From: an uncultured Gemmatimonadota bacterium
Lineage (GTDB): Bacteria; SM23-81
Assembly (NCBI GenBank): GCA_964584035.1
Contig: CAZOYL010000010.1
Span: 1 to 34,619 of the forward strand
DNA: 34,619 nucleotides
Direction of reading: 5' to 3'
Part shown: positions 1,219-26,193 of the stretch, one piece after another
Numbering within the stretch: position 1 is the stretch's first letter
How the letters are laid out: each line of letters starts with the position of its first letter
Translations under genes and position numbers: made by a program
The notes under the pieces: model-generated
The model's database searches: none
What the model saw: only the letters and a program-made list of their open reading frames with translations
What the model was told of the DNA's origin: nothing

Positions 1219-1294
1219 ATTGGGCCGCCTCTCCGCCGGAGCATCGGTTTGGACTGGGCGGCCGCATCGAGCGGCACGGGCATCCGCGAGTGAC

Positions 1295-8972: not shown

Positions 8973-9026
8973 CGTTCCGGCCGCCTTGGATCAGCCGATG
9001 AAATGGTGTCGCCGGATTGAGAGCAT

Positions 9027-10163: not shown

Positions 10164-10178
10164 GATGAGGCTAAGATT

Positions 10179-11294
10179 TTGCGCATTCTGTTGATCAGCT
10201 CTCAAAAAAACTGGGGCGGGGGAGAGGCCTGGATGCTGTCAACGGCACTGGGCCTGGCTCGCCGGGGACACTCTGTCTCCCTGGTCTGTCAGCCGGGCAG
10301 TATGCTGGCCGGGCGCGCTCTTGCTCAGGGATTCCGGCCTGTGACCATAAGATTGCGGGGGGATTTTGATCCCATAGTGATCACCCGGTTATATCGGCTC
10401 ATCCGACGACGCCGAATTCAGCTGGTCTGCGGCAACATGGGCAAAGAGGTCCGCCTGGCCGGTGTCTCTGCCAGACTGGCAAAGATTCCCTTTATCCGCC
10501 GGCGGGGCAGTGACATGCGTTATCCAAACAGATGGCGCCATCGGCTGGTCGATCGCTGTCTGGTTCGTCTGATCATCGTCAACTCGCGAGCCACTCGGGA
10601 CACGTTGCTCCGGGGCAATCCCTGGCTGCCGCCGGAGAAACTGAAATTGATCTATAACGGAATACCCCTGTCTATGGATGGCGGGTCGGTCAACAGGGAT
10701 GAGGTGTTGAAGGAGTTCGGCCTGGAGAAGGCCGCTCCTCTTTTGGGTGTCGTCGGCCTGTTGAAGGAACGCAAAGGTCATGAGGTCTTATTCCGGGCCA
10801 TGCCGCAGATCCTGGAAAAATTCCCCCGGTTAGCCCTGCTGGTGGTCGGGGAGGGCGCCCTCAGAGGAAAATTAGAGGATCTGACGCACCGTTTGGGTAT
10901 CGCCCGTCATGTTCATTTCACGGGATTTCGCGACGATGTGCTTCCGTTGATGGAGGCCCTGGATATTCTGGTGCTGCCCTCCAAGAATGAGGGCTTCGGC
11001 TATGTTTTAGCAGAGGCCATGTCTTTGCGCAAACCGGTCGTGGCCAGCAGGATCAGCAGCATTCCCGAGGTGGTGTCGGAGGGGCGCACCGGATTGCTGG
11101 TGCCGCCCGGTGATATCGCAGCGCTGCGGGACGCCCTGCTCGATCTGGCCGGGGATCCCCAAAGAGCACAGCAGATGGGTTTGGACGGAAGGCGGCGGGT
11201 GGAACGGCTCTTTTCGCTGGAGCGTATGCTGGATGAAGTGGAGGACCTGTTCGGGAAGGTCATCAAGGAGGGCGGATTCAGGAGGGTTCTTTGA
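10179..11294 (+). CDS. Glycosyltransferase family 4
   Basis: WGGGE, IYNGI, ERKGH, EGFGYVLAEAM; TTG start. Confidence 0.92.
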   Translation: MRILLISSQKNWGGGEAWMLSTALGLARRGHSVSLVCQPGSMLAGRALAQGFRPVTIRLRGDFDPIVITRLYRLIRRRRIQLVCGNMGKEVRLAGVSARLAKIPFIRRRGSDMRYPNRWRHRLVDRCLVRLIIVNSRATRDTLLRGNPWLPPEKLKLIYNGIPLSMDGGSVNRDEVLKEFGLEKAAPLLGVVGLLKERKGHEVLFRAMPQILEKFPRLALLVVGEGALRGKLEDLTHRLGIARHVHFTGFRDDVLPLMEALDILVLPSKNEGFGYVLAEAMSLRKPVVASRISSIPEVVSEGRTGLLVPPGDIAALRDALLDLAGDPQRAQQMGLDGRRRVERLFSLERMLDEVEDLFGKVIKEGGFRRVL

Positions 11295-12165
11295 TCAGGA
11301 TATAATTCCTGTATTCCCCGATCACGGCATTCAGGATGTGGTTCTCGACAAAGGATAGCATCCGGTTGGACAGTTTATGATGACGGTGCTTGACACCAGG
11401 TTCGTCCTCGACTTGCCAGTCTTTGCGGGCGATGCGGGGGCCCATCACCCGGGGGTGGGTTCCTTGAAAACGGGCCAGGTGTTTCAGGGAGCCGTAGCGG
11501 AAGGAACTTTCTCTGTCGGGATGGCGCCGGTTGACCCATTGGGTGTCGTGGTGCAGGGAATCCAGGGCCACTTGCTTGCGCTTCATCAGCCGGGGATGAC
11601 GCACCCAGCCGTAATGATAGACCTTCGCGCCGCTGGGAACCACCTTGATTTTTTCTCCGTTTCGGCGGAAGCCCTGAGCGCTTTTCCATGATTCAATGCC
11701 CAGGCCGTTGCGGATCACCCGGACCTCATGGCGATACCAGCCGTGAGCCTTCTGATAGGTCTCATAGCTGCCCCAGAAATGGACATAGTCGAACAGCAGT
11801 CCCTCGATATTAGAATAGGGTTGACATCGCTCCATGGCGGCCCGAATGATGGGCAGATATTTTTCATGGATCACTTCATCGGCCTGGACGTAGAAACACC
11901 AGTCGCCCGAACATCGCGACAGAGCCAGGTTGGTCTGCTGAGCATTGATGGCGCCGTGAACGAAGTACTGCGGATCCCAGTCGCTCTCAATGAGGTGTAT
12001 TCTGGGATCGCCGATTCCCCGAATGGCCTCCGCCGTGCCATCGTCCGACCGTCCCACGGCCACCCAGAACTCATCGCAGATGGGCAAAATGGAGGTGATG
12101 GCCTCCACGATGGGGTAGTCGAGCCGCAATGCGTCCCGAACGAAACTGAAACCGCTGACGTTCAT
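11278..12165 (-). CDS. Glycosyltransferase family 2 (GT-A fold, LPS-related)
   Basis: SGFSFVR, YPIVEAI, SDDGT, QADE (DxD-like), YHYGWVR; GGAG RBS at 12171-12174. Confidence 0.85.
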   Translation of the reverse strand: MNVSGFSFVRDALRLDYPIVEAITSILPICDEFWVAVGRSDDGTAEAIRGIGDPRIHLIESDWDPQYFVHGAINAQQTNLALSRCSGDWCFYVQADEVIHEKYLPIIRAAMERCQPYSNIEGLLFDYVHFWGSYETYQKAHGWYRHEVRVIRNGLGIESWKSAQGFRRNGEKIKVVPSGAKVYHYGWVRHPRLMKRKQVALDSLHHDTQWVNRRHPDRESSFRYGSLKHLARFQGTHPRVMGPRIARKDWQVEDEPGVKHRHHKLSNRMLSFVENHILNAVIGEYRNYILIKEPS

Positions 12166-12197
12166 ATATTCTCCATGGTTGGGACCTGATGTCACCC

Positions 12198-12226
12198 AAA
12201 ATATGCTCTTCGGGCCGGGGGGTCAA
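12198..12226 (-). promoter_or_regulatory. sigma70-type promoter for antisense GT2 gene
   Basis: Minus strand TTGACC, 17 bp spacer, TATTTT. Confidence 0.55.
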
Positions 12227-12237
12227 GGAATTTCTTG

Positions 12238-13365
12238 ATGCAGAAGCGATGGCGCATATTGCAGCTGGTTGATGTCCGCTGGTGGAACGCCTGCGCCGAT
12301 TACGGAATCAGCCTGGCCCTTGGCTTACAACGCCGGGGTCAGCGGGTATTCGTGGCCGGAGAGAGAGGGAGCCCTCCTCTGACGCAGGCCCGGCGGCTGG
12401 GACTGCCGATCTACGAGAACCGGCTGGGACGGAGCGGACCGGCCGGCTGGATCTCCGATCTGACCGGTTTGATCGACTTCATCCGACGGGAAAAGATCCA
12501 GTTGCTGAACGCCCATCGGGCCGAGGGGCACCTTTTTTCCAGCCTGGCTTCTCTCCGGCTGGGCCGCCGCATTCCGGTGGTTCGCACCAGGGGCGATATC
12601 CGCCCGCCCAAAGGTCATCTGCTGAACCGCTGGCTCCATCTCCACCTGACCGACGCCCTGGTGCTGCCCAGTGAGGCATTGAAAGGCCCTGTCCTGGGGA
12701 AACTTCGTCGCTGGCCCCGGCAGTTTCAGGTCATTCCTCCGGGCGTCGATGCGGATCGTTTTGCCAGCCGCCGCTCTCCCTCGGCGGCTCGCTCACATCT
12801 GGGCTGGCCCAGCGAGGAACCCCTGGTGGGTGTGGTGGGACGGCTTTCGCCGGTCAAGGGTCTGGATATTTTTCTGCAGGCCGCTGCCCAGGTGGCTCGG
12901 TCGGTGCCCGGATCGAATTTCGTTCTGGTAGGAGGTGAAGCCCAGTTGAGCATCACGGACCTCCGCAGGTTGGCTCGAAAGTTGGGCATCGATCATCGGG
13001 TTCGCTTCATCGGGCAGGTTCAGGAGACGATTCCTTACATGGAGGCGTTCGATGTGGCGGTGGTGCCGTCGGTGGGGTCGGAAGCCATTTGCCGGGTCGC
13101 TCTGGAACACATGGCCATGAGCCGGCCGGTGGTCGGCACGCGGGTCAATGCCATTCCCGAGGTCGTGGTCCACGAACGAACCGGACTGCTGGTGCCGCCG
13201 GGCGATGCCCGGGCTCTGGCCCGGGCCATCGTGACGCTTCTGAAAAATCCGGACAGAGCCCATGCTATGGGTGAAGCCGGCCGGCGGCGGGTAGAGACAT
13301 CCTTCACGCTGGACCACCTTGCCTGCCGGACCGAAGATCTCTATAACCGGCTGCTGTCCGCCTGA
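12238..13365 (+). CDS. Glycosyltransferase family 4
   Basis: IPPGVD, GRLSPVKG, EAICRVALEHM (Ex7E). Confidence 0.9.
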   Translation: MQKRWRILQLVDVRWWNACADYGISLALGLQRRGQRVFVAGERGSPPLTQARRLGLPIYENRLGRSGPAGWISDLTGLIDFIRREKIQLLNAHRAEGHLFSSLASLRLGRRIPVVRTRGDIRPPKGHLLNRWLHLHLTDALVLPSEALKGPVLGKLRRWPRQFQVIPPGVDADRFASRRSPSAARSHLGWPSEEPLVGVVGRLSPVKGLDIFLQAAAQVARSVPGSNFVLVGGEAQLSITDLRRLARKLGIDHRVRFIGQVQETIPYMEAFDVAVVPSVGSEAICRVALEHMAMSRPVVGTRVNAIPEVVVHERTGLLVPPGDARALARAIVTLLKNPDRAHAMGEAGRRRVETSFTLDHLACRTEDLYNRLLSA

Positions 13366-13475
13366 CGAGGGGAGCTGCCGGAGTGATCGCCGCATCCCGG
13401 CGGTGGAGTCGATCGCGGCAGGGGGAGCGTTTTGCCGATGATGTGTCTGAAAGCAAGGTGAGAAAGGGCCCGTTG

Positions 13476-14735
13476 ATGGTTGTTTCTGAACGGAAGGAGA
13501 GCTGCGGTTCGATGTCGATCGCACCGCAGCCGTCCTCAGAGGTCGGCTGGAATCAAAAGATTGTCCTGACTGCCCTGTTGGGTTTCGCCTTTTTTTCACC
13601 CTGGTCCATCGCCGGGGCCCAGATCAGCCTGGGAGTGGGTCTGCTGACCTGGGTTGCGGGGCTGTTCAGTTCTGCTCGACGCCCGTTGGTGCGCTCTCCG
13701 CTGTTGTGGCCGGTGGCGGCCTATCTGGGATTTCAGCTTCTCTCGGTGCTGTTCAGTCCCGATCTCCTGACGGGTCTTCGGGCCTTTCGCGCCGAGTGGA
13801 TCATTCTGCTGTACTTTCTGGTGGTCAATATGGTCGAAGACGGCCGGTCGGTCCGCCGGCTGGCCGATGTCCTGGTGTTGACCACCGTCCTGGTCAGCCT
13901 GTATGCTATTTGGCAGCACTGGGCCGGCTGGGACCTGTATCGCCAGCGCCCTCTGCGTGCCACCGGGAGCGTGTTCGAGGCCACCGGCCTGTTCGGTCAC
14001 CATCTGACCTTTGGCGGATACATCATGATGGTGCTGATGCTCAGCGGCAGCCTGTTTCTTTTCGGATCCCGGAATCGTGCCAGGATATTCTACGGATTGA
14101 GCAGTCTGGTGCTGTTCCTGGCCCTGCTGTTCAGCTATGCCCGCAGCGCCTGGCTCGGATTTCTGGCCGGGACGCTGGCCGTGGCTATGGTCCGCGGGCG
14201 CCGGGCGCTGACCGTCATCCTGCCCGGCATCGCCGTGGTCATCGTGATGGCGGTTCTTCTGCTGCCGTCGGTGCGCGAACAGGCCGGGGAGATCGCCGGC
14301 CTGTTCGAGGATCCTATGTCCAAATCCTCCCGCCTGCAGATGTGGTCGGCCGCCTGGCGGCTGATCGGCGATCATCCTCTTCTGGGAGGGGGCAGTGGCC
14401 AGGCCGCCGGGCTGTTGCCCGGCTATGGTTGTGAGCTGGGTTATGCTCACATGCATAACGATCTTCTCAACGTTGCTGCGAATTCGGGTCTGCCCAGTCT
14501 GGCGGCCTTTGTGTGGATATGGGTGGTGCTTCTCCGTCTCACCGTCAGATGCCGCCGGAACCGCCGGTCAGGCCCCTGGTCTGCAGGCATGGCTGCCGCA
14601 GGATTCGGAATCGTGGTGGCCGTTCTGGTGGCCGGACTGTTCCAGTGTTATTACACCGATGCCGAAGACGGCATGCTCCTGTGGTTCTGTATGGGCCTGG
14701 TGGTCACCGTGTGCGCCCAAACTGAAAGGGCATGA
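13476..14735 (+). CDS. O-antigen ligase family (WaaL/Wzy_C) membrane protein
   Basis: About 11-12 TM segments; SYARSAW, SRLQMW, HPLLGGG, HMHNDLL motifs; start uncertain (13476 or 13512). Confidence 0.88.
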   Translation: MVVSERKESCGSMSIAPQPSSEVGWNQKIVLTALLGFAFFSPWSIAGAQISLGVGLLTWVAGLFSSARRPLVRSPLLWPVAAYLGFQLLSVLFSPDLLTGLRAFRAEWIILLYFLVVNMVEDGRSVRRLADVLVLTTVLVSLYAIWQHWAGWDLYRQRPLRATGSVFEATGLFGHHLTFGGYIMMVLMLSGSLFLFGSRNRARIFYGLSSLVLFLALLFSYARSAWLGFLAGTLAVAMVRGRRALTVILPGIAVVIVMAVLLLPSVREQAGEIAGLFEDPMSKSSRLQMWSAAWRLIGDHPLLGGGSGQAAGLLPGYGCELGYAHMHNDLLNVAANSGLPSLAAFVWIWVVLLRLTVRCRRNRRSGPWSAGMAAAGFGIVVAVLVAGLFQCYYTDAEDGMLLWFCMGLVVTVCAQTERA

Positions 14736-14739
14736 AGTC

Positions 14740-16881
14740 ATGCAGCGAACCGCATTTTTGGATGAGGTCGTGAAGCTTACGCCCAAGGCCGATGTTCAGC
14801 TGATCGGGAGAGCTTTCGATTTCAGCCGCCAGGCCCACCAGGGACAGCTTCGTAAATCGGGTCGTCCATTTTTTGAGCATTGCGTACAGGTGGCTCTCAT
14901 CCTGGCCCAGCAGGGACTCGATTCGATAACCGTTTCGGCAGCTCTGCTACACGATACCGTAGAGGATGCCGGGGTGCAGATCGAGGACCTCAAGGACCGT
15001 TTCGGAGGGGAGATCTCCGATTTGGTGGATGGTGTCTCCAAGATCGGCGGCCTGGCCTTTCGCAGCAAAGAGGAGAGCCAGGCGGAGTATTATCGCAAGA
15101 TGATCCTGTCGATGGCCAAAGATATCCGGGTCATTCTGATTAAATTTGCCGACCGCCTTCACAACATGCGCACCCTGGAGTATCTGCCCGCCGATCGGAT
15201 CCGGCGCATCGCCCATGAAACCCAGGACGTCTACGCCCCTCTGGCTCACCGTCTGGGGATAGACCAGATGAAGCGGGAAATGGAGGATCTCAGCCTGAAG
15301 TTTCTTCAACCGGAGATCTATAAGGAGTTTTCAGAGAAAATCGCGCTCAGCACCGAGGCCCGCGAGCGTTATATCGATATGATCAAGGTTCCCTTGATGA
15401 AAGCCCTTGAGGAGGTCGGCATCCAGGCCGCCATCACCGGCCGAGCCAAGCACCTGGCCAGTATTTACCGCAAGATCCTACAACGGCACAAGCCGTTGGA
15501 GGAAATTTACGATCTCACCGCTATGCGTGTGGTGACCACAACGGTCCAGGATTGTTATCATGTGCTGGGCATCATCCATCACCTGTGGAGGCCCATTCCC
15601 GGACGGTTCAAGGATTTTATCGCCATGCCCAAGAGCAATATGTATCAGGCGCTGCATACCACCGTGATGGGCCCGCAGGGTGAACCCGTCGAGATACAGA
15701 TACGGACCGAGGATATGCACCGGACCGCCGAGATGGGCATCGCCGCTCACTGGCTCTATAAGGAGGGGCGGAGAAGTCCCGATGAGCTGGACGAGTACAT
15801 GGGCTGGTTGAGACAGGTGCTGGACTGGCAGCGGGATCTGACCGATCCCCGCGAATTTATGGAGTATCTGAAGTTCGACCTGTATGGCGAGGAGATCTTC
15901 GTTTTTACCCCCAAGGGAGATCTGAAGCCGCTCCCCCGGGGAGCGACGCCAGTGGACTTCGCCTTCGCGGTGCACAGCGATGTGGGACTCCATTGCCAGG
16001 GGGCCAAGGTCAATGACCGCATGGTGCCGCTGGTTTCGCAGCTTCACAGCGGCGATACGGTTCAGATCATCACCTCCCCTTCGCAGCACCCCAGCCGGGA
16101 CTGGCTCAAGCTGGTCAAGACATCTCGCGCCAAGAGCAAAATCAGACATTGGCTGAAGGGTCAACGTCACAGCCAGAGCCTGTCGCTGGGCCGGGAGATG
16201 CTGGAACGAGAGCTGAAGAAACGCCGCTGGGGGCCGCGATCATCCGAACAGCTTTCCCGGGTGGCCGAAGAATTCGGACTGCCGGATATGGAACATTTCT
16301 ATGTGGCTCTGGGAAGCGGGGATCTTTCACTTCAACAGGTCCTCGGCAGGCTCGGACCGAGTGTCGAGGAGAGGAAGTCAGCGCGGACCGTTGTCGGACG
16401 GAGAACGGGCCGAACAGCCCGAGGGGACGAGCGGGGGGTTCAGATCCAGGGCCTGGACAGTCTGATGATCCGTTTTGCCAGGTGTTGTCAGCCCATTCCG
16501 GGGGACCCCATTGTGGGATTTGTTACCCGGGGGCGGGGCATATCGATCCATCGGGCGAACTGTCCCAACAGCGTGCGCCTGATGACGTATCCGGAGCGCC
16601 AGGTTTCCGTGGAGTGGGATACCCGGTCGGAACAGTCCTTTCCGGTCATCATCGAGGTGGTGGCGAACCGCCGGGTGGATCTGCTCAGTGATCTGACACG
16701 GGTCGTCTCGGATATGGGCGCCGACGTGCGCGACGCCGCTGTTAAAGTGGAGGGAGAGGCCTTTTTCGGCACCTTCCGCATTGGTGTCCATGATCTTCAA
16801 CATCTGCATGCCATCATGGATAAATTGCGTCACGTGAAGGGCACCGAACGTGTCCTTCGCCGGACGCGCGGGGCGGAATGA
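14740..16881 (+). CDS. rel: Bifunctional (p)ppGpp synthetase/hydrolase (long RSH)
   Basis: HD hydrolase LLHDTVED and DRLHNMRTL; synthetase RFKD and EIQIRT; TGS (FTPKG...DFAFAVH); CC zinc finger; C-terminal ACT; start at ATG 14740. Confidence 0.96.
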   Translation: MQRTAFLDEVVKLTPKADVQLIGRAFDFSRQAHQGQLRKSGRPFFEHCVQVALILAQQGLDSITVSAALLHDTVEDAGVQIEDLKDRFGGEISDLVDGVSKIGGLAFRSKEESQAEYYRKMILSMAKDIRVILIKFADRLHNMRTLEYLPADRIRRIAHETQDVYAPLAHRLGIDQMKREMEDLSLKFLQPEIYKEFSEKIALSTEARERYIDMIKVPLMKALEEVGIQAAITGRAKHLASIYRKILQRHKPLEEIYDLTAMRVVTTTVQDCYHVLGIIHHLWRPIPGRFKDFIAMPKSNMYQALHTTVMGPQGEPVEIQIRTEDMHRTAEMGIAAHWLYKEGRRSPDELDEYMGWLRQVLDWQRDLTDPREFMEYLKFDLYGEEIFVFTPKGDLKPLPRGATPVDFAFAVHSDVGLHCQGAKVNDRMVPLVSQLHSGDTVQIITSPSQHPSRDWLKLVKTSRAKSKIRHWLKGQRHSQSLSLGREMLERELKKRRWGPRSSEQLSRVAEEFGLPDMEHFYVALGSGDLSLQQVLGRLGPSVEERKSARTVVGRRTGRTARGDERGVQIQGLDSLMIRFARCCQPIPGDPIVGFVTRGRGISIHRANCPNSVRLMTYPERQVSVEWDTRSEQSFPVIIEVVANRRVDLLSDLTRVVSDMGADVRDAAVKVEGEAFFGTFRIGVHDLQHLHAIMDKLRHVKGTERVLRRTRGAE

Positions 16882-16892
16882 AGAGTGGGCCC

Positions 16893-18641
16893 TTACCCGG
16901 TGGGAGGGGTCAGCGGCGAAGAGAACCAATCGAGTTGAATATGAGAGAAAATCTTGTCCCTTGCCTGGCATTCCCCCAGAAAGGTCCATTCACCGGGATC
17001 GACCCATTCGCCCCGGCCGTAACGCCCGGCCATGTCGGCCAGGCGATTGAAGATCTGATGGTGCTCGACCAAACGTAGTTCGGCATAATCCCGGGCCGAC
17101 CAGGTGCTGATCAGGAATTGCCAGTCGGAAGCCTCCAGCAGCAGCAGTTCGCGGGCCATCTGTTTGAGGATACTCTCAAGCTGTTCATCCGGATGTTTCC
17201 CCAGCTCTGCCAGCAGCGATGCGAAGCGGGCCTCGTCCTCATAGATATGTTTCCAGGTCCATTCGGTCCACTCATTTAGCCAGATATAGTGGTAGCCTCC
17301 CTGTCCCCAGGATCCTTCCGGCAGGGAAACGATTTCCGTCGGTGCCGCCTCGTCCAGATAATCGCCGCAGGTGGTCAGTTCGACCTCCTCATCCTGGTCC
17401 AGCAGGTCGAGGACCTTTCTCAGCCATTGGGGTCCTTCGAACCACCAGTGGCCGAAGAGCTCGGCGTCGAATGGCGCACAGACGATCCCCCGGCGGCCCG
17501 TCTGGCGATGGTATTCCCGAAGGCTGTCCTTCACCAGCTGGACGAAATGTTTGGCGTTCTCCGGAACTCGCCCGATGGCCCGGTCAGGATCATATTCCTC
17601 TTTTTCCGCCAGGTCGCTTCCCGGGCCGGTGACCCGCCAGTAACGGTGCCCCCCCGGATAGTGCTTCTTGTGGAAGTCAAGATACCATCCATCGCCAGGA
17701 TAGCCCCACTGACTGCTCCATACCTGCAGGCCGGTTTCCGCATCGCGCGTGAAAACAGCCACGGGTGAGCGGCTTTCCGTGGTGCCGCTGCCTACCAGGT
17801 AGATCTCCCGGGGCGTTCTCTCCTTTTCCTCGGGCCGTTCCTGATATTGGCTGGCGAACTGTTGCCATAAGCGGCGCAGGGATTCAAAACGATCGATATA
17901 GACGCCGATCGACTTGCCTCCCTTCAGCAGGGCAGAGTCCACGATAAAATATTCCAGACCGTTTTCAGCCAGGATCTGTTCGATGCCCCGCCGGGGGAAT
18001 TCTTCCGGGAGCACCGTGGTTTTCACCGGAGGGGACCATCGATACCCGGGCCGGTAAGCGCACTCCGGGAGCCAGATCCCCCGGGGCCGCTTTCCGAAGT
18101 GGCGGCGGTACGTTTCCACACCGACTCGAATCTGAAAGCCGACATTTTCATCGGTGCCCAGCAGTGGCAGATAACCGTGAGTGGCCGCGCAGGTGATGAT
18201 CTCCAGATGATGCTCATCCTGAAGTTTTTTAAAGGCGCCTATCAGATCCCGATGGTAACGGTTTTGGAAACTCTCCCGGATTCCGGCGTAATGATCGCGC
18301 CACCGGATGGCCAGATCAGCCAGTGAGGCGCGGTCCCACTGGCTGAAGGTGCGATGATCTTCTTCTGCGGCGTCGATCTTCTCGGTGAGATAGTGCTCGA
18401 ATTCCTCCTTGAAATCATCGTCCGCCAGCTGCTCACAGAGCACCGGCGTAAGCCCCAGCGTGAGCCGGGGCGAGCGGCCTTCCGCCAGCAGATCATTCAG
18501 CACGTTGAGCAGGGGAATATAGGTTTCGGCGGTGGCCTCGTTGAGCCAATCCATTCCGTGTGGCCAGCGGCCGTGGGCCATCACGTAAGGCAAGTGTGCG
18601 TGAAGGACGATGGTGAAACGGCCAATGAAATTTTTTTTCAT
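16893..18641 (-). CDS. GH57 1,4-alpha-glucan branching enzyme (DUF1957 C-terminus)
   Basis: HAHLPYV, ETYIPLL, THGYLPLL, GIWLPECAY (nucleophile Glu), FDAELFGHWWFEG (acid/base Asp), ELLLLEASDW; GGAGAGG RBS. Confidence 0.95.
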   Translation of the reverse strand: MKKNFIGRFTIVLHAHLPYVMAHGRWPHGMDWLNEATAETYIPLLNVLNDLLAEGRSPRLTLGLTPVLCEQLADDDFKEEFEHYLTEKIDAAEEDHRTFSQWDRASLADLAIRWRDHYAGIRESFQNRYHRDLIGAFKKLQDEHHLEIITCAATHGYLPLLGTDENVGFQIRVGVETYRRHFGKRPRGIWLPECAYRPGYRWSPPVKTTVLPEEFPRRGIEQILAENGLEYFIVDSALLKGGKSIGVYIDRFESLRRLWQQFASQYQERPEEKERTPREIYLVGSGTTESRSPVAVFTRDAETGLQVWSSQWGYPGDGWYLDFHKKHYPGGHRYWRVTGPGSDLAEKEEYDPDRAIGRVPENAKHFVQLVKDSLREYHRQTGRRGIVCAPFDAELFGHWWFEGPQWLRKVLDLLDQDEEVELTTCGDYLDEAAPTEIVSLPEGSWGQGGYHYIWLNEWTEWTWKHIYEDEARFASLLAELGKHPDEQLESILKQMARELLLLEASDWQFLISTWSARDYAELRLVEHHQIFNRLADMAGRYGRGEWVDPGEWTFLGECQARDKIFSHIQLDWFSSPLTPPTG

Positions 18642-18696
18642 GGTCACCTCTCCTGGGGCGATGCGCGAAAGGGAATGACATCATCAATGAGAATAG

Positions 18697-18758: not shown

Positions 18759-19337
18759 TCACAGATCGAAAGAGGATTCCATCTTCATGAATGAGGCGAT
18801 TTCCTCTTCGCCCAGTGGGATCATCGTCGATGGCAGGGAGATATCCTGCTCCAGCTGTTCCCCCGAGGATTCTTTATGCGTTGAGGAATTGGCATACTCG
18901 ATGAGCAGGCCGTTCTCATTATCAGACTGAAGCAGGCGAAGCCTGAACAGATCCACCGGGAGGTTTTCCAGGGCGGCCACGGCATCCTGGAAACAAGCGG
19001 AGAAATCCGGAGCCACCAGGATCAATCGGGGATGAACGAACAGATCCCTGGCCCTTTCTCCCAGCAGGGGCAGCATCTGATGCCGATACTGGTGGAACCA
19101 TCGCAGGTGTGATAGGCCTTCCACCAGCAGGTCATCCCGGGCCTGGGGAGCCACATCGATGATCACCGGCCGGCCGGTGGCGTCCACGCCCAGCAAATCC
19201 ATCGGCCCCCATTTTCCACGCCCTTTGCCGGGGTCGACCACCCGCAGGCCCTTCTCCAGAGCCTGCGAATTTTCAGCCACCATCAGGGCCAGGCGGTCTC
19301 TATCTTCCAGCGGCTTGCTGTTGAATACCTTGGTCAC
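18759..19337 (-). CDS. Hypothetical protein with degenerate NucS-like PD-(D/E)XK fold
   Basis: ALEKGLRVV...GPMDLLGVDATGRPVIIDV...PRLILVAPDF resembles the NucS C-terminal domain; GTG start in GTGA overlap with upstream stop. Confidence 0.65.
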   Translation of the reverse strand: MTKVFNSKPLEDRDRLALMVAENSQALEKGLRVVDPGKGRGKWGPMDLLGVDATGRPVIIDVAPQARDDLLVEGLSHLRWFHQYRHQMLPLLGERARDLFVHPRLILVAPDFSACFQDAVAALENLPVDLFRLRLLQSDNENGLLIEYANSSTHKESSGEQLEQDISLPSTMIPLGEEEIASFMKMESSFDL

Positions 19338-20281
19338 GTCGATGCCTCCAGAACCTGGCGGAGCGCTTGAAAAAAAGAGCGGTCCGTCTCTTCTCGAGCC
19401 CGCGGCTGTACCCATAACTTCTCTGCGATCTGTGAGAGACACTGAGCGGCCCTGGAGCTGGCGCGAGTCAGGGAGAGAGGCGTGCGCCGCAGAATGGATT
19501 TCTCGATGTTGACATCGGCAAGCAGGTAGCCCAGGTTGACGACCGTCACATTTAAGAATTCGTTCAGTGCGCGGGTCATCTGCTTGAAGATAGATTGAGC
19601 TTCCGATATCATCCGAACCTGATAGACGACGATGCCCAGCGTGATGTCCGGCCTGGTCGACAGGATGTTCTTGATGACGGCATAGGCATCCATCATTCCC
19701 AGGGGATCAGAGGGGACCATGACGACGATCTGGTGGGCCAGCCCGTGAATCAGACGGGCGTTCTCATGCACGGAGGCCGGCGTGTTTACCAGTATCATAT
19801 GGGCATCGGTCTCCAGTGATGTCAGCCCCGCCCAAATCCTTTCCCGGGCCGTCTCGGGAAGTTCCCTAAGATGACGAAGATCGATGTCCAGAGAGAGAAG
19901 TTTGACGCCCAGGGGTCCTTCGAGAATGACCTGTGGCTGTTGCCCGTTCTCTTCCTCGGCCAGGCGCGCCAGAGAATCGCCCGGCCGGCGGCCCCACAGG
20001 AAGGCTTGATCCGGAAAGCTGGAATCGGCATCCACGATCCTGATCCGTCGCCTGCGGCGGGAAAGTTCCACGGCCAAATTGCTGACCAGAAAAGATTTTT
20101 CCAGACAGCGGTGATCTCCTGTCACCGCCACAACGCGGGGAAACGGTTTGTCACTCTGGGAAGCATGCGGATTCTTCGGGGAATCCTCCTCCGGCTGTGA
20201 TGGCGGGGACGACTCCTCGGCCGACAGGAACAGGTGAGAGATGTCTTCCAATCCTTTTGCCAATCTTTTGTGATCTTTCAA
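19334..20281 (-). CDS. FlhG/MinD-like protein with degenerate P-loop
   Basis: VVAVTG...KSFLVSNLA, IVDAD, DAYAVIK, LGYLLAD features of FlhG/MinD; Walker A reads GDHRCLEKS; C-terminal SFFQALRQVL helix; TTG start. Confidence 0.8.
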   Translation of the reverse strand: MKDHKRLAKGLEDISHLFLSAEESSPPSQPEEDSPKNPHASQSDKPFPRVVAVTGDHRCLEKSFLVSNLAVELSRRRRRIRIVDADSSFPDQAFLWGRRPGDSLARLAEEENGQQPQVILEGPLGVKLLSLDIDLRHLRELPETARERIWAGLTSLETDAHMILVNTPASVHENARLIHGLAHQIVVMVPSDPLGMMDAYAVIKNILSTRPDITLGIVVYQVRMISEAQSIFKQMTRALNEFLNVTVVNLGYLLADVNIEKSILRRTPLSLTRASSRAAQCLSQIAEKLWVQPRAREETDRSFFQALRQVLEAST

Positions 20282-20297
20282 TTTAGTATGACTCTTT

Positions 20298-21386
20298 CTA
20301 TTGTTGGATCTCGACTATGGAGTTCTTGACCCCGTAGGGGGTGTCGACCGTGTGAGGATTGTGCGGATCCTCCATCCACTGGCCATCGACGATGAAGCGG
20401 TACTGGTACCTGCCCGGTTCCAGGGGCAATACAGCGGACCAGATGCCGTTGCCGTCGGGATCCAGATGAGCGGCCTCATCGGGCTGCCAGTCGTTGAAAT
20501 CACCGGCCACTCGAACCTGGCCGGCATCAGGAGCCAGCAGCCGCAGGTGGAGACCCTGTTCGGTAAAACAAGGCCCCAGAGGTTTGGCCATCGCTGAGGC
20601 TGGCCGGACCTGATATTGCCGATCCTGAGACTCTTCCAAAACTTCCTGAGCCAGGGCGGCATGGTCGCGATAACCGGCGCAGTGCCGGTCGTACTGGCAG
20701 ATGGGCTGGCCGAAACCGGTGGCCTCTCTGAGGCGGACATTGATCCCGATGGTGGTTCGAAACAGCCCCTTGCCAAAGTGGCGGCTCAACTCCTCGAGCA
20801 CCTCTGTGGCAATCTTGGTGCGGCGATCGAATATGGTCGCTGCCACCCGGACGTGTTTTCGCTGGCCGTAACGGTCGGCGATGAGTTTGATCGTCTCGCT
20901 GAGCTTGGCCAGCCCGTGCAGGGCAAAAAAACTCGTTTCGACCGGTACGATGATCTCCCGGCAGGCCCTGAGGGCGTTGAAGGTCAGCAGACCCAGACTC
21001 GGCGGGCAATCTACGATGACATAGTCATAGTCACGGGACAACTGCGCCAGGGCGATCAGCAGCCGGTCTTCCCGCCCGGGATGCCCGGCCAGCTCCTGTT
21101 CCACGGCGGCCAGCATGAGCCCGGAGGGGGCCAGATCCAGGCGCGGCCCCAGGCCCACGAGAATATCCTTCAAATCGGTGTCGGGGTGGTTCTCCGAGAG
21201 GACATGATAGAGGCCCCGGTCGACCTCGTCGGGTTGAACACCAACGCCCAGAGAAGCATGTCCCTGAGGGTCCAGGTCGATCAGGAGAACGCTCTGGTCC
21301 TTCTCGGCCAAACAGGCCGATAGATTGATGGCCGTGACCGTTTTTCCACAGCCGCCCTTCTGGTTGATGACCGCGATGGTTCTCAT
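20298..21386 (-). CDS. Soj/ParA-family ATPase fused to C-terminal CBM48 (AMPK-beta-like glycogen-binding) domain
   Basis: NQKGGCGKT, DLDPQG, IVDCPPSLG; residues about 278-362 carry VAGDFNDW...GIW...PGRYQYRFIVDGQW..DP.N...YGVKNS; AGGAGAGG RBS. Confidence 0.93.
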   Translation of the reverse strand: MRTIAVINQKGGCGKTVTAINLSACLAEKDQSVLLIDLDPQGHASLGVGVQPDEVDRGLYHVLSENHPDTDLKDILVGLGPRLDLAPSGLMLAAVEQELAGHPGREDRLLIALAQLSRDYDYVIVDCPPSLGLLTFNALRACREIIVPVETSFFALHGLAKLSETIKLIADRYGQRKHVRVAATIFDRRTKIATEVLEELSRHFGKGLFRTTIGINVRLREATGFGQPICQYDRHCAGYRDHAALAQEVLEESQDRQYQVRPASAMAKPLGPCFTEQGLHLRLLAPDAGQVRVAGDFNDWQPDEAAHLDPDGNGIWSAVLPLEPGRYQYRFIVDGQWMEDPHNPHTVDTPYGVKNSIVEIQQ

Positions 21387-21448: not shown

Positions 21449-21778
21449 CTATTCCCGTGGTTCCCCGGGACGTCCGGTCTGAAAACCGATCTCCGATCCT
21501 GGCTGCCCCTGTATCTTGATCTTTCCAAAGCGGTCTTCGAATTTCTCCAGGTTCTGCTCCAGAGCATTGCAGAGCATCTTGGCGTTCTGAGGCGTCATGA
21601 CGATACGGGCATAGACCTTTGTTTTCTTGATACCCGGCATAACCCGGGCAAAATCGATGAAAAATTCCGATGGCGAGTGGGCGATCAGGGCCAGATTGGA
21701 GTAAATCCCTTCCGATTCCTTCTCTCCCAGCTCTACCGAGATCTGATGGGGTCTTTTCTCCGGCATTTTTTTCTCCAT
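21449..21778 (-). CDS. DUF3467 family protein
   Basis: EGIYSNLALIAHSPSEFFIDF...ARIVMTPQNAKML...FE.RFG.I signature. Confidence 0.85.
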   Translation of the reverse strand: MEKKMPEKRPHQISVELGEKESEGIYSNLALIAHSPSEFFIDFARVMPGIKKTKVYARIVMTPQNAKMLCNALEQNLEKFEDRFGKIKIQGQPGSEIGFQTGRPGEPRE

Positions 21779-21814
21779 AGGTATGCCACCCTGTATGTTG
21801 TGCTGGCCGCTCGT

Positions 21815-21843
21815 AAAGTACATTCATTTTGTGGAAAAGTCAA
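21815..21843 (-). promoter_or_regulatory. sigma70-type promoter for the DUF3467 / ParA-CBM48 cluster
   Basis: Minus strand TTGACT, 17 bp spacer, TACTTT. Confidence 0.65.
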
Positions 21844-22042: not shown

Positions 22043-22170
22043 TAACCTTCGGGGCGAGGTGGAATTCCTCGACCGGCGGTGAAAGCCCGCGAACGATGAC
22101 ACACACCGGTGTGTGCTCGTGGAGCCGGTGAAATTCCGGCGCCGACGGCAAGAGTCCGGATGAAAGAAGG
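22043..22170 (+). ncRNA. FMN riboswitch (RFN element) aptamer
   Basis: CCTTCGGGGCGAGGTGGAATTCCTCGACCGGCGGT, AGCCCGCGA, CCGGTGAAATTCCGG, CCGACGG, AGTCCGGATGAAAGAAGG; P1 CCTTC/GAAGG; upstream of ribD. Confidence 0.96.
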
Positions 22171-22204
22171 TGCATCAGGAGGTGGAGTCCGTGCGTTTGT
22201 GATG

Positions 22205-22236
22205 GCCCCGGGGGATGTTCCTTTGGGGCTTTTTTT
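22205..22236 (+). terminator. Riboswitch expression-platform terminator
   Basis: GCCCCGGGGGA-tgt-TCCTTTGGGGC followed by T7, 4 nt before ribD ATG. Confidence 0.85.
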
Positions 22237-22240
22237 AGCG

Positions 22241-23323
22241 ATGGCTCAATACGATGATCAGCGATATATCCGCCTGGCCCTGCGCCTGGCCCGCAGGGGG
22301 CTGGGCATGGCTTCGCCCAATCCCTGTGTCGGCGCGGTGGTGGTCAGGAACGGCATCATCCTGGGACAGGGTTATCACCGGCGTCCGGGTGAGGACCATG
22401 CTGAAGTCCTGGCTTTACGGCAAGCCGGTCGAAAGGCTCGCGGATCGACCCTGTATGTCAACCTGGAACCCTGTTGTTTCCAGGGCCGGACACCTCCCTG
22501 TACAGAAGAGATACTGAGAAGGGGAGTGGCTCGGGTCGTCTGTGCTCAGGAGGATCCCAATCCCAGGGTCTCCGGTCGAGGGCTGGCCCGGCTGCGATCG
22601 GCCGGGGTCGATGTGTCCAGCGGCGTGATGGAGCAACAGGCCAGGGAGTTGAACGAGGCCTATGATAAGCATATCAGCACCGGCTGGCCGTTTCTGGTAG
22701 TCAAGATCGCGCAGACGCTGGATGGTCGCATCGCTACCCGGGATGGGGATTCCCGGTGGATCACCTCGTATCCGGCGCGGCGGTTGACCCATCGTCTGCG
22801 ATCGCAACTCGATGCCGTTCTGGTCGGTGCGGGGACGGTGCGCCGGGATGATCCCCGCCTGAATGTTCGCCATGGACGTGGTCGTGATCCGGTAAAAATC
22901 ATATTAGACAGCCGACTGCGGATACCTCTCCGGGCTCGCCTGTGGTCCGGCGGCAGGACCATCGTGGCCACCTGTGAGGGTGGCGATGAACATCAGATCC
23001 GGCGCTACCGAGACCTAGGGGCGGAGATTTGGGAATTCCCCCCCGATGCGGATGGCCGGGTGGATTTTGGGAAGTGTATCGAACGGCTCGGGCAGGAGGG
23101 CATCATCAGCGTTCTGGTGGAAGGTGGACAGAGAGTGTTCACCACGGCCCTGAAATCGGGGCTGGTGGATAAGATTGTCATCTGCCTGGCGCCCCGCCTG
23201 CTGGGCCGGGGGAAAAACGCTCTGGGCGATCTGGGCATCCGACGGATCGCCGATGCTCTGCCGGTCCGGGAACTGAAGGTTCGCCGCCTGGGACCGGATG
23301 TGATCATCACCGGCCGAATGTGA
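22241..23323 (+). CDS. ribD: Bifunctional diaminohydroxyphosphoribosylaminopyrimidine deaminase / reductase
   Basis: SPNPCVG, HAE, LEPCC...TPPC, TLDGRIA, VEGG; start at 22241, after the riboswitch. Confidence 0.96.
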   Translation: MAQYDDQRYIRLALRLARRGLGMASPNPCVGAVVVRNGIILGQGYHRRPGEDHAEVLALRQAGRKARGSTLYVNLEPCCFQGRTPPCTEEILRRGVARVVCAQEDPNPRVSGRGLARLRSAGVDVSSGVMEQQARELNEAYDKHISTGWPFLVVKIAQTLDGRIATRDGDSRWITSYPARRLTHRLRSQLDAVLVGAGTVRRDDPRLNVRHGRGRDPVKIILDSRLRIPLRARLWSGGRTIVATCEGGDEHQIRRYRDLGAEIWEFPPDADGRVDFGKCIERLGQEGIISVLVEGGQRVFTTALKSGLVDKIVICLAPRLLGRGKNALGDLGIRRIADALPVRELKVRRLGPDVIITGRM

Positions 23324-23330
23324 GGAGTAC

Positions 23331-23969
23331 ATGTTCACCGGCATCGTCGTGGAAACTGGAGTTGTTCGAGCGGTCCAGCGCATCCGCGGCGGCCTCAGTC
23401 TGACGGTCGCGGCTGAGCGGATTCCGCGGGGCCTGAAGCCCGGCGACAGCATCGCCATCGACGGGGTCTGCCAGACGGTCGTGGCCCTCGGCGATGACGC
23501 CTTTTCGGTCGAGGTCCTGCCGGAGACTCTGGGCCGAACCACGCTGGGGAGCATGCGCCGGGGCGACCGGGTGAATCTGGAACTGGCGGTGGGACCGGAT
23601 GATCGCTTCGGGGGTCATCTGATCACCGGACATGTGGACGGCCTGGGCATCATTCGTGCCCGCCGCCCCCGGACCGGCGATACCATCCTGAGGATCGACG
23701 CACCGGCCGGCATTCTAACTCAACTGGTGGAGCGGGGCTCGGTGGCCGTGGATGGTATCAGCCTGACGGTGGTATCGCTCTCCGGCAGCACGTTCACGGT
23801 GGCGCTTATCCCTCACACGTTGCGGACCACGACCCTGGCCGGCAGAAAAGTGGGCGATCGGGTCAATCTGGAGACGGACCTGATCGTCAAGGCCGTTCAT
23901 CGCTGGTTGGATCCCGGTCGCAATCGCGGTGAGTTAACCGAGGATCGTCTCAGACAGTTGGGTTTTTAA
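23331..23969 (+). CDS. ribE: Riboflavin synthase (alpha chain)
   Basis: MFTGIV N-terminus, [28 protein letters not shown]. Confidence 0.96.
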
Positions 23970-24000
23970 CCCAGGGTGTGATCAGAAACAAGAGGTTGTT

Positions 24001-25260
24001 ATGACCGGAAAACAGAAATCATCGGTCTTCGATTCCATCGAACAGGGGCTGGAGGATATCCGCCGGGGCAAAATGGTCATCGTGGTGGACGACGAGAGCA
24101 GAGAGAACGAGGGCGATTTCATCATGGCCGCCGAAAAGGTGACCTCTGAGTCCATCAATTTCATGGCCAAATATGGTCGCGGTCTCATCTGTATGCCCAT
24201 GACGGGTGAGCGGCTTGACCGCCTGGGTCTGTCCCCCATGGTCACGAAAAACACCGCCAAGCTGGGAACACCCTTCACGGTTTCGGTAGATGCCGTACAG
24301 GGCACGACCACGGGAATATCGGCTCAGGACCGGGCCGCCACCGTTCAAACCCTGATCGATCCGGCTTCTAAACCTGAGGACCTGGCCAAACCCGGGCATA
24401 TCTTCCCGCTCCGGGCCATGGAGGGGGGCATTCTTCGCCGGGCGGGGCATACCGAGGCGGCAGTGGATCTGGCCGTTCTGGCCGGCCTGATGCCGGCCGG
24501 TTTGCTGTGCGAGATCATGGCCGACGATGGAACCATGGCCCGGGTCCCCGAGCTGTTGGAGCTGAAGCCGCGCTTCGATCTCAAGCTCATTACTATCAAA
24601 GACTTAATCTTCTACCGGCGCCGCACAGAGAAGATGATTCGCCGGGTGGCGACCACCGGACTGCCCAGTCGATTCGGATCGTTCACCCTGCATCTGTACG
24701 AGGATATCATCACCGGAGATCACCACGTTGCCCTGGTCAAGGGTCAAGTGAAGGGTAAGAAGCGCATTCTCGTCAGAGTTCACTCTCAATGCCTGACGGG
24801 GGATCTGTTTGGATCATTGCGCTGTGATTGCGGAGATCAGATGGCCGAGGCTCTGCGGCGTATCGAGCAGGAGGGCAGCGGCGTTTTCCTCTATATGCGG
24901 CAGGAGGGCAGAGGCATCGGATTGGCCAATAAGCTGCGCGCCTATGAGCTTCAGGATCGGGGACGTGATACCGTTGAGGCCAATGAGGAGCTGGGCTTTG
25001 CTCCGGATCTGCGCGACTACGGCATCGGAGCGCAGATATTGGTCGACCTGGGACTTTCCACCATCCGGATCATGACCAATAATCCCCGTAAGATTACCGG
25101 CCTGGAGGGATACGACCTGGAGGTGGTCGAAAGGGTTCCGCTGCAGATCCCCCCCCGCCGGGAAAATGTCCGTTATCTTCAAACCAAGAGAAAAAAATTA
25201 GGCCATCTGCTGGACTTTACTGCCAAGGAATCCAGCCTGTCACAGGGGGAAAAGAGATGA
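24001..25260 (+). CDS. ribBA: Bifunctional DHBP synthase / GTP cyclohydrolase II
   Basis: [46 protein letters not shown]. Confidence 0.97.
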
Positions 25261-25736
25261 TCGTTCGCCAGGGGAAGTACAGTGCTTCCGGCAAGCGGTT
25301 TGCCATCGTGATCAGCCGTTTTAACGAGTTCATCACCGGCAAGCTTCTGGATGGAGCCGTCGATTGTTTGCAGCGGCACGGCGCCGAAGAATCGGATCTG
25401 GAGGTCTTCTGGGTTCCGGGAGCCTTCGAGATTCCTTATCTGGCCAAGAAACTGGCTGCGGCGGGAGGGCATCACGGCATTATCTGTCTGGGGGCCATTA
25501 TCCGCGGGGCCACTCCGCATTTCGATTATGTGGCCAGCGAGGTGGCCAAGGGCATCGCCCAGAGTGCGCTGGAAACGGGCCTGCCCGTGATCTACGGGGT
25601 GATCACGGCCGATACGGTCGAACAGGCCGTGGAACGAGCCGGAACGAAGGCCGGCAACAGGGGTTTCGATGCGGCCCTGGCCGCCATCGAGCTGGTCGAT
25701 CTGTACGGCTCGATATCTCGCCGGAAGAAGCGTTAA
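25257..25736 (+). CDS. ribH: 6,7-dimethyl-8-ribityllumazine synthase
   Basis: [26 protein letters not shown]. Confidence 0.97.
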
Positions 25737-25749
25737 GGGGATAGCCAGG

Positions 25750-26193
25750 ATGGGAAAGCGGCGAAAAGCTCGAGAACTGGCCCTGCAGGCTCTGTATGCT
25801 TTTGAGCTCTCGAGAGATCAGATCGATGGTATCCTGGAGACGATCCCCGATCGGGAGGACCTTTCCCAGGAGGTCGTTCAGTTCGCCGCATCCCTCAGCA
25901 GGACCGCGGTTGAGCATCTCGAACAAATCGACGATATCATCTCGCAGAGGGTCCAGCGATGGGAGCTTTCTCGCATCGCCATGGTCGATAAGACGATCCT
26001 GCGGTTGGCCGTCTGCGAACTGCTCTACTTTCCTGATATCCCCCAGAAGGTTTCGATCAACGAAGCCATCGAACTGGCCAAGGCTTATAGCACCGGGGAA
26101 TCGGGACGTTTTGTCAACGGTATACTGGATTCCATAGCCGGTCTGCACGGAGGCGGCGGGAATAAGCCGGCCGATGGGAAAAACGGCGGGTGA
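25750..26193 (+). CDS. nusB: Transcription antitermination factor NusB
   Basis: RRKARELALQALY, DKTILRL, INEAIELAK, FVNGILD; ribH-nusB adjacency. Confidence 0.95.
   Translation: MGKRRKARELALQALYAFELSRDQIDGILETIPDREDLSQEVVQFAASLSRTAVEHLEQIDDIISQRVQRWELSRIAMVDKTILRLAVCELLYFPDIPQKVSINEAIELAKAYSTGESGRFVNGILDSIAGLHGGGGNKPADGKNGG

Follow-up and report, generated by a model that had tools for sequence, protein, structure and literature searches.

A Walker-A-less FlhG-like protein with a ParB-type tag in a candidate ParA system probably linked to glycogen

The window analyzed here is positions 1 to 34,619 of contig CAZOYL010000010.1, 34,619 nucleotides (nt) from an uncultured Gemmatimonadota bacterium (GenBank assembly GCA_964584035.1). 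Its minus strand encodes a Soj-type ParA ATPase fused to a glycogen-binding module of the CBM48 family, followed by a protein of the FlhG/MinD fold (below, the pseudo-ATPase) that has lost the Walker A motif and carries a short ParB-like peptide (below, the tag) at its N-terminus. The pseudo-ATPase is likely to be a catalytically dead descendant of FlhG that has kept the FlhG/MinD fold and acts as an adaptor presenting a ParA-activating tag, in a ParA system not yet described, for which a link to glycogen is probable. The probability we give to this explanation, taken jointly, is about 0.55.

A preliminary description of the same DNA, made from the sequence without database searches, had read the pseudo-ATPase as a dead enzyme repurposed as a membrane-associated activator of the adjacent ParA. 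What it observed in the sequence is confirmed, and its interpretation is supported in part: the fold, the loss of the P-loop, the ParB-like spacing and the link to ParA stand, while the evidence for the membrane is weak. The coupled third gene encoding a NucS-like protein, the modularity of the tag and the descent from FlhG proper go beyond that description.

The FlhG-like protein and its tag

The gene of the pseudo-ATPase starts with TTG, the earliest start codon possible past the upstream stop, and its homologues start at the same residue. The gene and its parts are the following.

19334..20281, minus strand: gene of the Walker-A-less FlhG/MinD-fold protein, 315 amino acids (aa), TTG start (open reading frame and translation)
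20222..20272, minus strand: N-terminal tag peptide, residues 4-20, HKRLAKGLEDISHLFLS, with a ParB-like L-x-K-x-L-x-x-I core and a SHLFLS extension
20141..20221, minus strand: variable linker rich in S, P and E (16/27 residues), residues 21-47
20093..20119, minus strand: degenerate P-loop GDHRCLEKS, residues 55-63, aligned to SGKGGxGKS of 46 intact relatives
19781..19795, minus strand: Walker B region ILVNT, residues 163-167, with N166 at the position of Asp; active relatives have hhhDT(G/A)AG
19349..19381, minus strand: C-terminal amphipathic helix RSFFQALRQVL, residues 301-311 (helix 303-313 in the structure model)

Both ATPase motifs are degenerate, as the preliminary description had noted. 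The translation reads GDHRCLEKS where the alignment of active relatives has SGKGGxGKS, and the P-loop is gone family-wide, not only in the window protein. The Walker B Asp, replaced by N166 here, is kept in several Zixibacteria relatives, unlike the window protein. With a ruined P-loop and no Walker B Asp, the protein has probably lost nucleotide binding. The peptide KRLAKGLEDISHLF, which had been pointed out at the N-terminus, is found at residues 5-18, and the S/P/E-rich linker said to follow it occupies residues 21-47.

The model of the pseudo-ATPase made with AlphaFold2 (AF2) from an alignment of 110 sequences has a predicted local distance difference test score (pLDDT) of 86.2 and a predicted template modeling (TM) score of 0.84, and is weak at residues 1-48 only; pLDDT is low (52-74) in the linker, and a short helix is predicted with moderate confidence at residues 15-19 of the tag. 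The best Foldseek match of the model is FlhG 4RZ2 (E-value 1e-18, TM-score on the target 0.87-0.89), followed by FleN 5J1J/8P53 and then by MinD 1hyq, in agreement with the FlhG/MinD fold proposed earlier. The profile matches point in the same direction: the protein scores 17.1 bits with Pfam CbiA (cutoff 25.4), 41.3 bits with NCBIfam minD_arch (cutoff 201.75) and 20.8 bits with minD_bact (cutoff 212.9), and these matches are real, though far under the curated cutoffs. Neither a ParBc (ParB/Srx) nor a helix-turn-helix (HTH) family was found in it with Pfam and NCBIfam. Flagellar families, the absence of which had also been noted, were found neither among the 29 open reading frames (ORFs) of the window that were scanned nor among 59 neighboring ORFs of related loci, and the Pfam and NCBIfam scans found no minC or minE in the window.

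The exhaustive representative search yielded 3501 relatives at E-values of at most 1e-3, just five of them at 1e-30 or lower; most are ordinary FlhG/MinD proteins that align only from approximately residue 45 on. From the homology and peptide-profile matches 110 relatives were picked and aligned. The Walker A pattern KGGxGK[ST] is present in 46 of the 110 and absent in 64, the whole peptide-bearing family among them. The intact and dead relatives differ at the N-terminus as well: DQAxxLR, the peptide by which FlhG activates FlhF, occurs within the first 60 residues of 30/46 Walker-A-intact relatives and of 0/64 dead ones. In its place the dead relatives bear K-R-L-G-K-G-L-E-D-I-S-H-L-F-L-S. 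The strict peptide pattern fits 57 of the 64; among the other seven, six are close variants or have a truncated start, and P0060 has a remnant only. The alignment of homologues, suggested in the preliminary description as a check, thus has the peptide conserved and the P-loop lost across the peptide-bearing family. Mean pairwise identity among the 64 dead relatives is 0.76 in the peptide (residues 5-20), 0.11 in the linker, 0.29 in the core and 0.27 in the C-terminal helix, and as the peptide so clearly surpasses the linker and the core, its signal exceeds chance.

A rough neighbor-joining tree (home-made in numpy, core columns only, 200 bootstraps) contains a bipartition that sets 63/64 dead sequences opposite all 46 intact ones, recovered exactly in 114/200 bootstraps. 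Only the unrooted bipartition was used, because the midpoint root fell inside the fast-evolving dead group. It suggests, without establishing it, a single origin of the dead family. Four MinD-like relatives (P0052, P0058, P0113 and P0180) combine an intact KGGTGKS with a looser N-terminal LGRxL peptide, and may stand, as active proteins, midway between FlhG and the dead family.

The tag itself is near-invariant across phyla in the alignment; residues L10, S14, L16, F17, L18 and S19 (in the numbering of the 42-aa pieces) are the same in 20/20 pieces. In ParB from Myxococcus xanthus the ParA-binding motif is formed by residues 11-19, where L11, L15, L18 and I19 are each required to bind ParA, and R13, replaced by Lys in about half of ParBs, is required for the stimulation of the ATPase; R13 variants bind ParA yet fail to activate it (PMC12462528). 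In spacing, tag residues L7, K9, L11 and I14 correspond to ParB L11, R13, L15 and L18, and the tag pattern L-x-(K/R)-x-L-x-x-(I/V) fits the published motif (PMC12462528), so that the ParB-like peptide of the preliminary description holds at the level of residue spacing. A predicted complex of the ParA dimer (residues 1-262) with two ATP and the 42-aa peptide piece, run with a separate alignment for each protein and without controls, had a score of 0.00 and a mark of 0.32, and counts neither way.

At the other end the protein reads ...RSFFQALRQVLEAST, including the SFFQALRQVL noticed earlier. Conservation in the alignment of homologues reaches 90% or more at F303 and F304, and in the alignment with active FlhG-type relatives the helix falls on their C-terminal tail, being homologous to the FlhG/MinD tail. 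The helix of the window protein has a hydrophobic moment (muH) of 0.81 and a net charge of +2. The best C-terminal windows of 5/28 scored members (P0048, P0049, P0202, P0207 and P0212) contain no FF motif.

The probable ParA partner, the NucS-like protein and the spread of the tag

The gene upstream of the pseudo-ATPase, separated from it by 16 nt, encodes the presumed partner.

20298..21386, minus strand: Soj-type ParA-CBM48, upstream partner gene (Pfam, PDB match)
20601-21386, minus strand: ParA part, residues 1-262 (Pfam AAA_31, E-value 2.9e-50)
20301-20600, minus strand: CBM48/AMPK-beta-like glycogen-binding module, residues 263-362 (Pfam AMPK1_CBM/CBM_48)

The deviant Walker A motif NQKGGCGKT is invariant in 15/15 ParAs of this subfamily. 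The best PDB match of the window ParA is M. xanthus ParA 8RAY (E-value 3.4e-53), and in this alignment Y81 and E117, both called invariant around R13 of ParB, are kept as Y60 and E98; of six residues in the hydrophobic pocket, L150, L152 and L187 are identical (L131, L133, L168), L155 corresponds to F136, and the DNA-binding R238 aligns with R218 (PMC12462528). The partner looks competent, with its ATPase motif intact and its matrix (DNA)-binding residue kept. The carbohydrate-binding module (CBM) aligns with that of AMPK beta (E-value 6e-9) and keeps FNDW, QYRF and VDGQW, positions which we take to contact the sugar.

The pattern L[EQ][DE][IV]SHLFL, scanned for genomic context against a single genome from each species, matched 130 stretches; 25 confirmed relatives gave 18 loci, from Zixibacteria, Omnitrophota, Nitrospirota, Desulfobacterales, a Pseudomonadota metagenome-assembled genome (MAG), Acidobacteria, Rokubacteria and unclassified MAGs. 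According to tblastn with the window proteins, the tag-bearing gene is located directly downstream of a ParA ATPase in 16/18 loci. The ParA ATPase part could not be read in L014, where the contig begins within CBM48 and just the CBM48 part is visible, and in L009 (a complete-chromosome MAG record), where a masked run of N at approximately 7600-7740 lies just upstream of the sole visible CBM48 fragment. Together with the retention of the tag beside ParA on unrelated protein bodies, these counts strongly back the association with the adjacent ParA-CBM48 that had been proposed. CBM48 is present in 15/18 loci (in 10/12 of the locus ParAs scanned with Pfam) and is missing from three Nitrospirota ParAs (L006, L007 and L008), which end in a short tail; these loci have kept both tag and NucS-like gene. 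A separate observation is a stand-alone CBM48 ORF of 159 aa in L013 (4020-4499), approximately 2 kb upstream of the ParA-CBM48 gene.

The third gene of the module is coupled to the second.

18759..19337, minus strand: NucS-like gene (PD-(D/E)xK-type fold), 192 aa, GTG start at 19337 set from the alignment of orthologues
18762-18800, minus strand: acidic C-terminal tail of the NucS-like protein, the same tail being present in L001, L003-L007, L017 and L018
18705..18729, minus strand: terminator-like hairpin with a T-run, just past the NucS-like stop and before the GH57 gene (consensus match only)

The start codon GTG and the stop codon of the pseudo-ATPase gene overlap within GTGA, indicating translational coupling, and this overlap and the 16-nt gap upstream are both signs of an operon. 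The ORF as listed (18759..19442, 227 aa) is too long, its extra 35 codons overlapping the pseudo-ATPase gene in another frame. Terminator-like hairpins in the region are not more numerous than expected from shuffled sequence.

The AF2 model of the NucS-like protein has a pLDDT of 85.6 and is matched by Foldseek to EndoMS/NucS 5gke and 2vld, with E-values of 1e-4 to 6e-4 over approximately 118 columns and a modest TM-score of 0.45 on the query; the NucS_C and NucS profile matches are weak, far under the curated cutoffs. At the position that we take to be the catalytic E-x-K of NucS the family has D-V-A or D-V-D and no Lys, and therefore the protein may be inactive. Its search in the ESM Atlas gave hypothetical-protein clusters only, one of them with NucS_C on 23% of members, and no new lead. 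An acidic C-terminal helix L-(T/S)-x-E-E-(I/M)-x-x-F is found in 11/11 aligned stand-alone NucS-like proteins, three of which (L011, L012 and L013) are just 14-20% identical to the window protein and of doubtful homology, and in 0/28 tag-fused ones. Such a complementary distribution would fit a tail that binds to the body of the dead FlhG. A NucS-like protein is present in 12/18 loci by tblastn, as the next gene or as the body of the tag protein itself; tblastn did not detect it in L016.

The tag is found on several different bodies (dead FlhG, NucS-like, DUF4912/glucodextranase-B and a coiled-coil protein), the position beside ParA being kept. A profile of the 42-aa tag piece collected 76 proteins, of which 31 have MinD-like length, five contain DUF4912 and 40 are short (130-226 aa); 28 of the 31 and 28 of the 40 were aligned. 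The 28 short proteins match the NucS-like genes that follow the dead FlhG (hhalign probability 99.9, E-value 4e-31), and therefore the body behind the tag is either the dead FlhG, which then has a NucS-like gene of its own after it, or the NucS-like protein. In L015 and L014 it is carried by a protein of approximately 210 aa. In L016 (8001-8540) it is carried by a 179-aa protein with a Cys-rich middle part and a coiled-coil C-terminus, an architecture also seen in P0200 and P0209; no family match was obtained for the L016 protein. In all three Omnitrophota loci (L004, L017 and L018) the dead FlhG and a DUF4912/glucodextranase-B protein bear a tag each. The latter genes, listed below, are located between a Cu-oxidase_4 gene and the GH57 branching enzyme.

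L004 10523-11965; L017 7758-9230; L018 9126-10664: DUF4912 + glucodextranase-B tag proteins, with the tag internal, at approximately residues 46-70

Two further genes flank the module in the window.

16893..18647, minus strand: GH57 1,4-alpha-glucan branching enzyme, neighboring gene (Pfam/NCBIfam)
21449..21823, minus strand: DUF3467 gene at the head of the cluster (Pfam), present also in L001-L003 and confined to Zixibacteria loci

A GH57 gene is found near the module also in L001, L003, L004, L017 and L018, and DUF4912/glucodextranase-B proteins are found beside it in Omnitrophota. At the place of the Zixibacteria DUF3467 gene, L006 and L008 have a MerR-family regulator upstream. The wider surroundings in the window include relA/spoT (14395-16881, the listed start being probably too far upstream), a ribD-ribE-ribBA-ribH-nusB operon (22109-26193), a cluster of lipopolysaccharide (LPS)/O-antigen glycosyltransferase and ligase genes (7884-14735) and comEC (1220-3811), as well as an ORF of 560 aa at 31641-33323 that has no Pfam family at E-values of at most 1e-5.

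Proposed mechanism and competing explanations

According to the mechanism that we propose, the DQAxxLR peptide of FlhG would have been swapped for a ParB-type ParA-binding motif with the SHLFLS extension, on a disordered linker of approximately 30 residues. The tag would dock at the dimer edge of the ATP-bound ParA-CBM48 and stimulate or time its ATP hydrolysis, as the peptides of ParB, McdB and PomX do in their systems; both the binding and the stimulation are predictions from sequence. The dead FlhG body would serve as an adaptor that connects the tag to the NucS-like protein, possibly also reaching the membrane through the C-terminal helix, and in lineages without a dead FlhG the same tag would be fused straight to the NucS-like body. 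The ParA, in turn, may bridge DNA (by R218 and related residues) and alpha-glucan (by CBM48). The module would then probably couple glycogen granules or glycogen-metabolizing complexes to the nucleoid and position or partition them, since ParA keeps residues for DNA and the ParB peptide and CBM48 keeps the AMPK-beta signature. Glycogen is the probable cargo given CBM48 and the GH57 and DUF4912/glucodextranase-B neighbors.

A wider formulation, to which we assign somewhat less than an even chance, is that of an unrecognized multi-phylum glycogen-granule ParA system, in which ParA is fused to CBM48 and the "ParB role" is played by a portable 16-residue tag shifted among two dead bodies (FlhG and the NucS-like fold), a DUF4912/glucodextranase-B protein and a coiled coil. 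If this formulation is true, one protein from the ParA/MinD family has been retooled as an activator of another, with an FlhF-directed peptide exchanged for a ParA-directed one.

Several observations weigh against this explanation. On the side of the peptide, the tag has Ser where the ParB motif has its fifth hydrophobic residue (I19), followed by the invariant H-L-F-L-S. Of the four residues around R13, the two called functionally conserved are lost in the window ParA (E82 to H61, D110 to M91), as are pocket residues V116 (Q97) and L192 (Y173) (PMC12462528). The tag profile matched no chain among the PDB sequences at E-values of 10 or lower, and therefore the resemblance to ParB lies in the pattern and is no statistically supported homology. 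On the side of the cargo, CBM48 is missing in 3/18 loci, those with the three Nitrospirota ParAs, and therefore glycogen cannot be the universal cargo; besides, the cargo-binding domain is located on ParA, while in canonical systems cargo is carried by the partner. The synteny data come from 18 tblastn-confirmed loci of the 130 matches, and so are conditioned on relatedness to the query. The single origin of the dead family relies on a home-made neighbor-joining tree with an exact bootstrap of just 57%, in which the dead sequences may be subject to long-branch attraction.

The membrane-targeting helix proposed in the preliminary description is amphipathic in the window protein, but the mean muH of the family is 0.60, within one standard deviation of internal control windows (0.51, standard deviation 0.15), and the net charge is +0.8, compared to +2.1 in active relatives (whose muH is 0.64). 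Some tails of the family are acidic, the helix being not consistently basic or present. Membrane targeting is thus weakly supported.

The most serious alternative, which we nevertheless consider unlikely, is that the interaction is made by the dead FlhG body, which would form a pseudo-heterodimer, a stable anchor or a sequestration site that holds or inhibits ParA-CBM48 instead of activating it, possibly at the membrane, while the peptide only raises affinity. It is consistent with the well-folded MinD-type core, with its conserved surface positions (Y200, K204 and the GPLG loop) and with the amphipathic C-terminal helix of the window protein. Moreover, as the ParB R13 variants bind without activating, binding and activation are separable (PMC12462528). 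However, the peptide stays beside ParA on NucS-like, DUF4912 and coiled-coil bodies, and therefore the MinD body is dispensable for the link to ParA. In addition, both partners in a MinD/ParA sandwich dimer need the signature Lys and a bound ATP, and the dead FlhG has neither. Rather less probable is another target of the peptide (the NucS-like protein, a housekeeping Soj/ParA or a glycogen enzyme), the adjacency to ParA reflecting shared regulation only. The LG(K/R)GL core does resemble the housekeeping ParB motif, and the NucS-like protein accompanies the tag in 12 loci, but ParA is the sole neighbor found in every readable locus (16/16), whereas the NucS-like protein is undetected by tblastn in L016, and many loci lack GH57 and DUF4912. 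The invariant SHLFLS extension speaks for a dedicated cognate partner and against the housekeeping ParA.

The combination of an ATPase with a nuclease is a common layout of defense systems, and the NucS-like protein, with its PD-(D/E)xK-type fold, has a partial match to the PADLOC candidate PDC-S18 (E-value 6.3e-11, 39.9 bits). Still, an anti-phage defense or mobile-element maintenance module made of ParA, dead ATPase and nuclease-like genes and unrelated to glycogen seems improbable to us: ParA and the pseudo-ATPase have no meaningful PADLOC match (best E-value 0.0016, 15.6 bits), the flanks are housekeeping (relA/spoT, GH57, the riboflavin operon, LPS glycosyltransferases), synteny of the module with glycogen genes extends over two phyla, and the NucS-like family with its D-V-A/D-V-D has no Lys at the E-x-K position. 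Hardly credible, finally, is an ordinary divergent FlhG/MinD engaged in the control of flagellar number or the placement of the division site. The Joint Genome Institute (JGI) labels several homologues "flagellar biosynthesis protein FlhG", and the fold is indeed FlhG-like, but neither Walker A nor DQAxxLR is present, the window contains no flagellar, minC or minE genes, and the profile scores are far under the curated cutoffs.

Significance and comparison with known systems

Bacteria position their cargo mainly with ParA/MinD ATPases, many of which count as "orphans" since their partners differ too much to be recognized. A short, almost invariant and searchable tag would assign partners to a whole ParA subfamily in at least seven phylum-level groups. 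The cargo class is likely to be new, namely a storage polysaccharide; to our knowledge, the spatial control of storage polysaccharide in bacteria is essentially unstudied. The pseudo-ATPase also illustrates a possible route to a pseudo-enzyme, by which FlhG keeps its activator-on-tether layout, loses catalysis and changes its client. The occurrence of one tag on unrelated scaffolds would give a counterpart in nature to the "luggage-tag" proposal made for synthetic positioning systems (PMC10241942).

The literature search found no paper on a ParA with CBM48, on DUF4912 with glycogen or on a Walker-A-less MinD/ParA, and its sole match to the SHLFLS motif was an unrelated paper on a nematode G-protein-coupled receptor. 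The principle of an N-terminal partner peptide, in contrast, is already established (PMC10241942, PMC12462528).

With FlhG/FleN (4RZ2, 5J1J, 8P53) the pseudo-ATPase shares the fold and the order of parts, namely a tethered N-terminal effector peptide, the MinD core and a C-terminal helix with FF. It differs from them by the destroyed P-loop, the replacement of the Walker B Asp by Asn, the ParB-like peptide in place of DQAxxLR and its location after ParA-CBM48 without flagellar context. The nuclease domain of NucS/EndoMS resembles the NucS-like protein in its PD-(D/E)xK-type fold (Foldseek), but the latter has no N-terminal NucS domain and reads D-V-A/D-V-D for E-x-K. The module on ParA has the FN(N/D)W, QY(K/R)F and VDGQW motifs of the AMPK beta CBM/CBM48 in alignment, and is distinguished by its fusion to the C-terminus of ParA.

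Like chromosomal ParB, the pseudo-ATPase has a disordered N-terminus with L-x-(R/K)-x-L-x-x-(L/I/V), and its gene lies beside that of a Soj-type ParA in which Y81, E117 and most of the hydrophobic pocket are retained (PMC12462528). Unlike ParB, the pseudo-ATPase has no ParB/Srx CTPase or HTH domain according to Pfam, and its tag has the invariant SHLFLS extension and is found on at least four unrelated scaffolds. A parallel in principle is provided by McdB, PomX, ParP and others, where a charged N-terminal peptide of a cargo-linked partner contacts and stimulates the ATPase dimer (PMC10241942), the same partner-peptide principle being described for PomX/PomY (10.1101/2025.12.01.691545). The module described here differs from these systems in that the partner, too, comes from the ParA/MinD superfamily, as a dead member, and in that the ATPase bears its own carbohydrate-binding module; one locus may also hold several tagged proteins.

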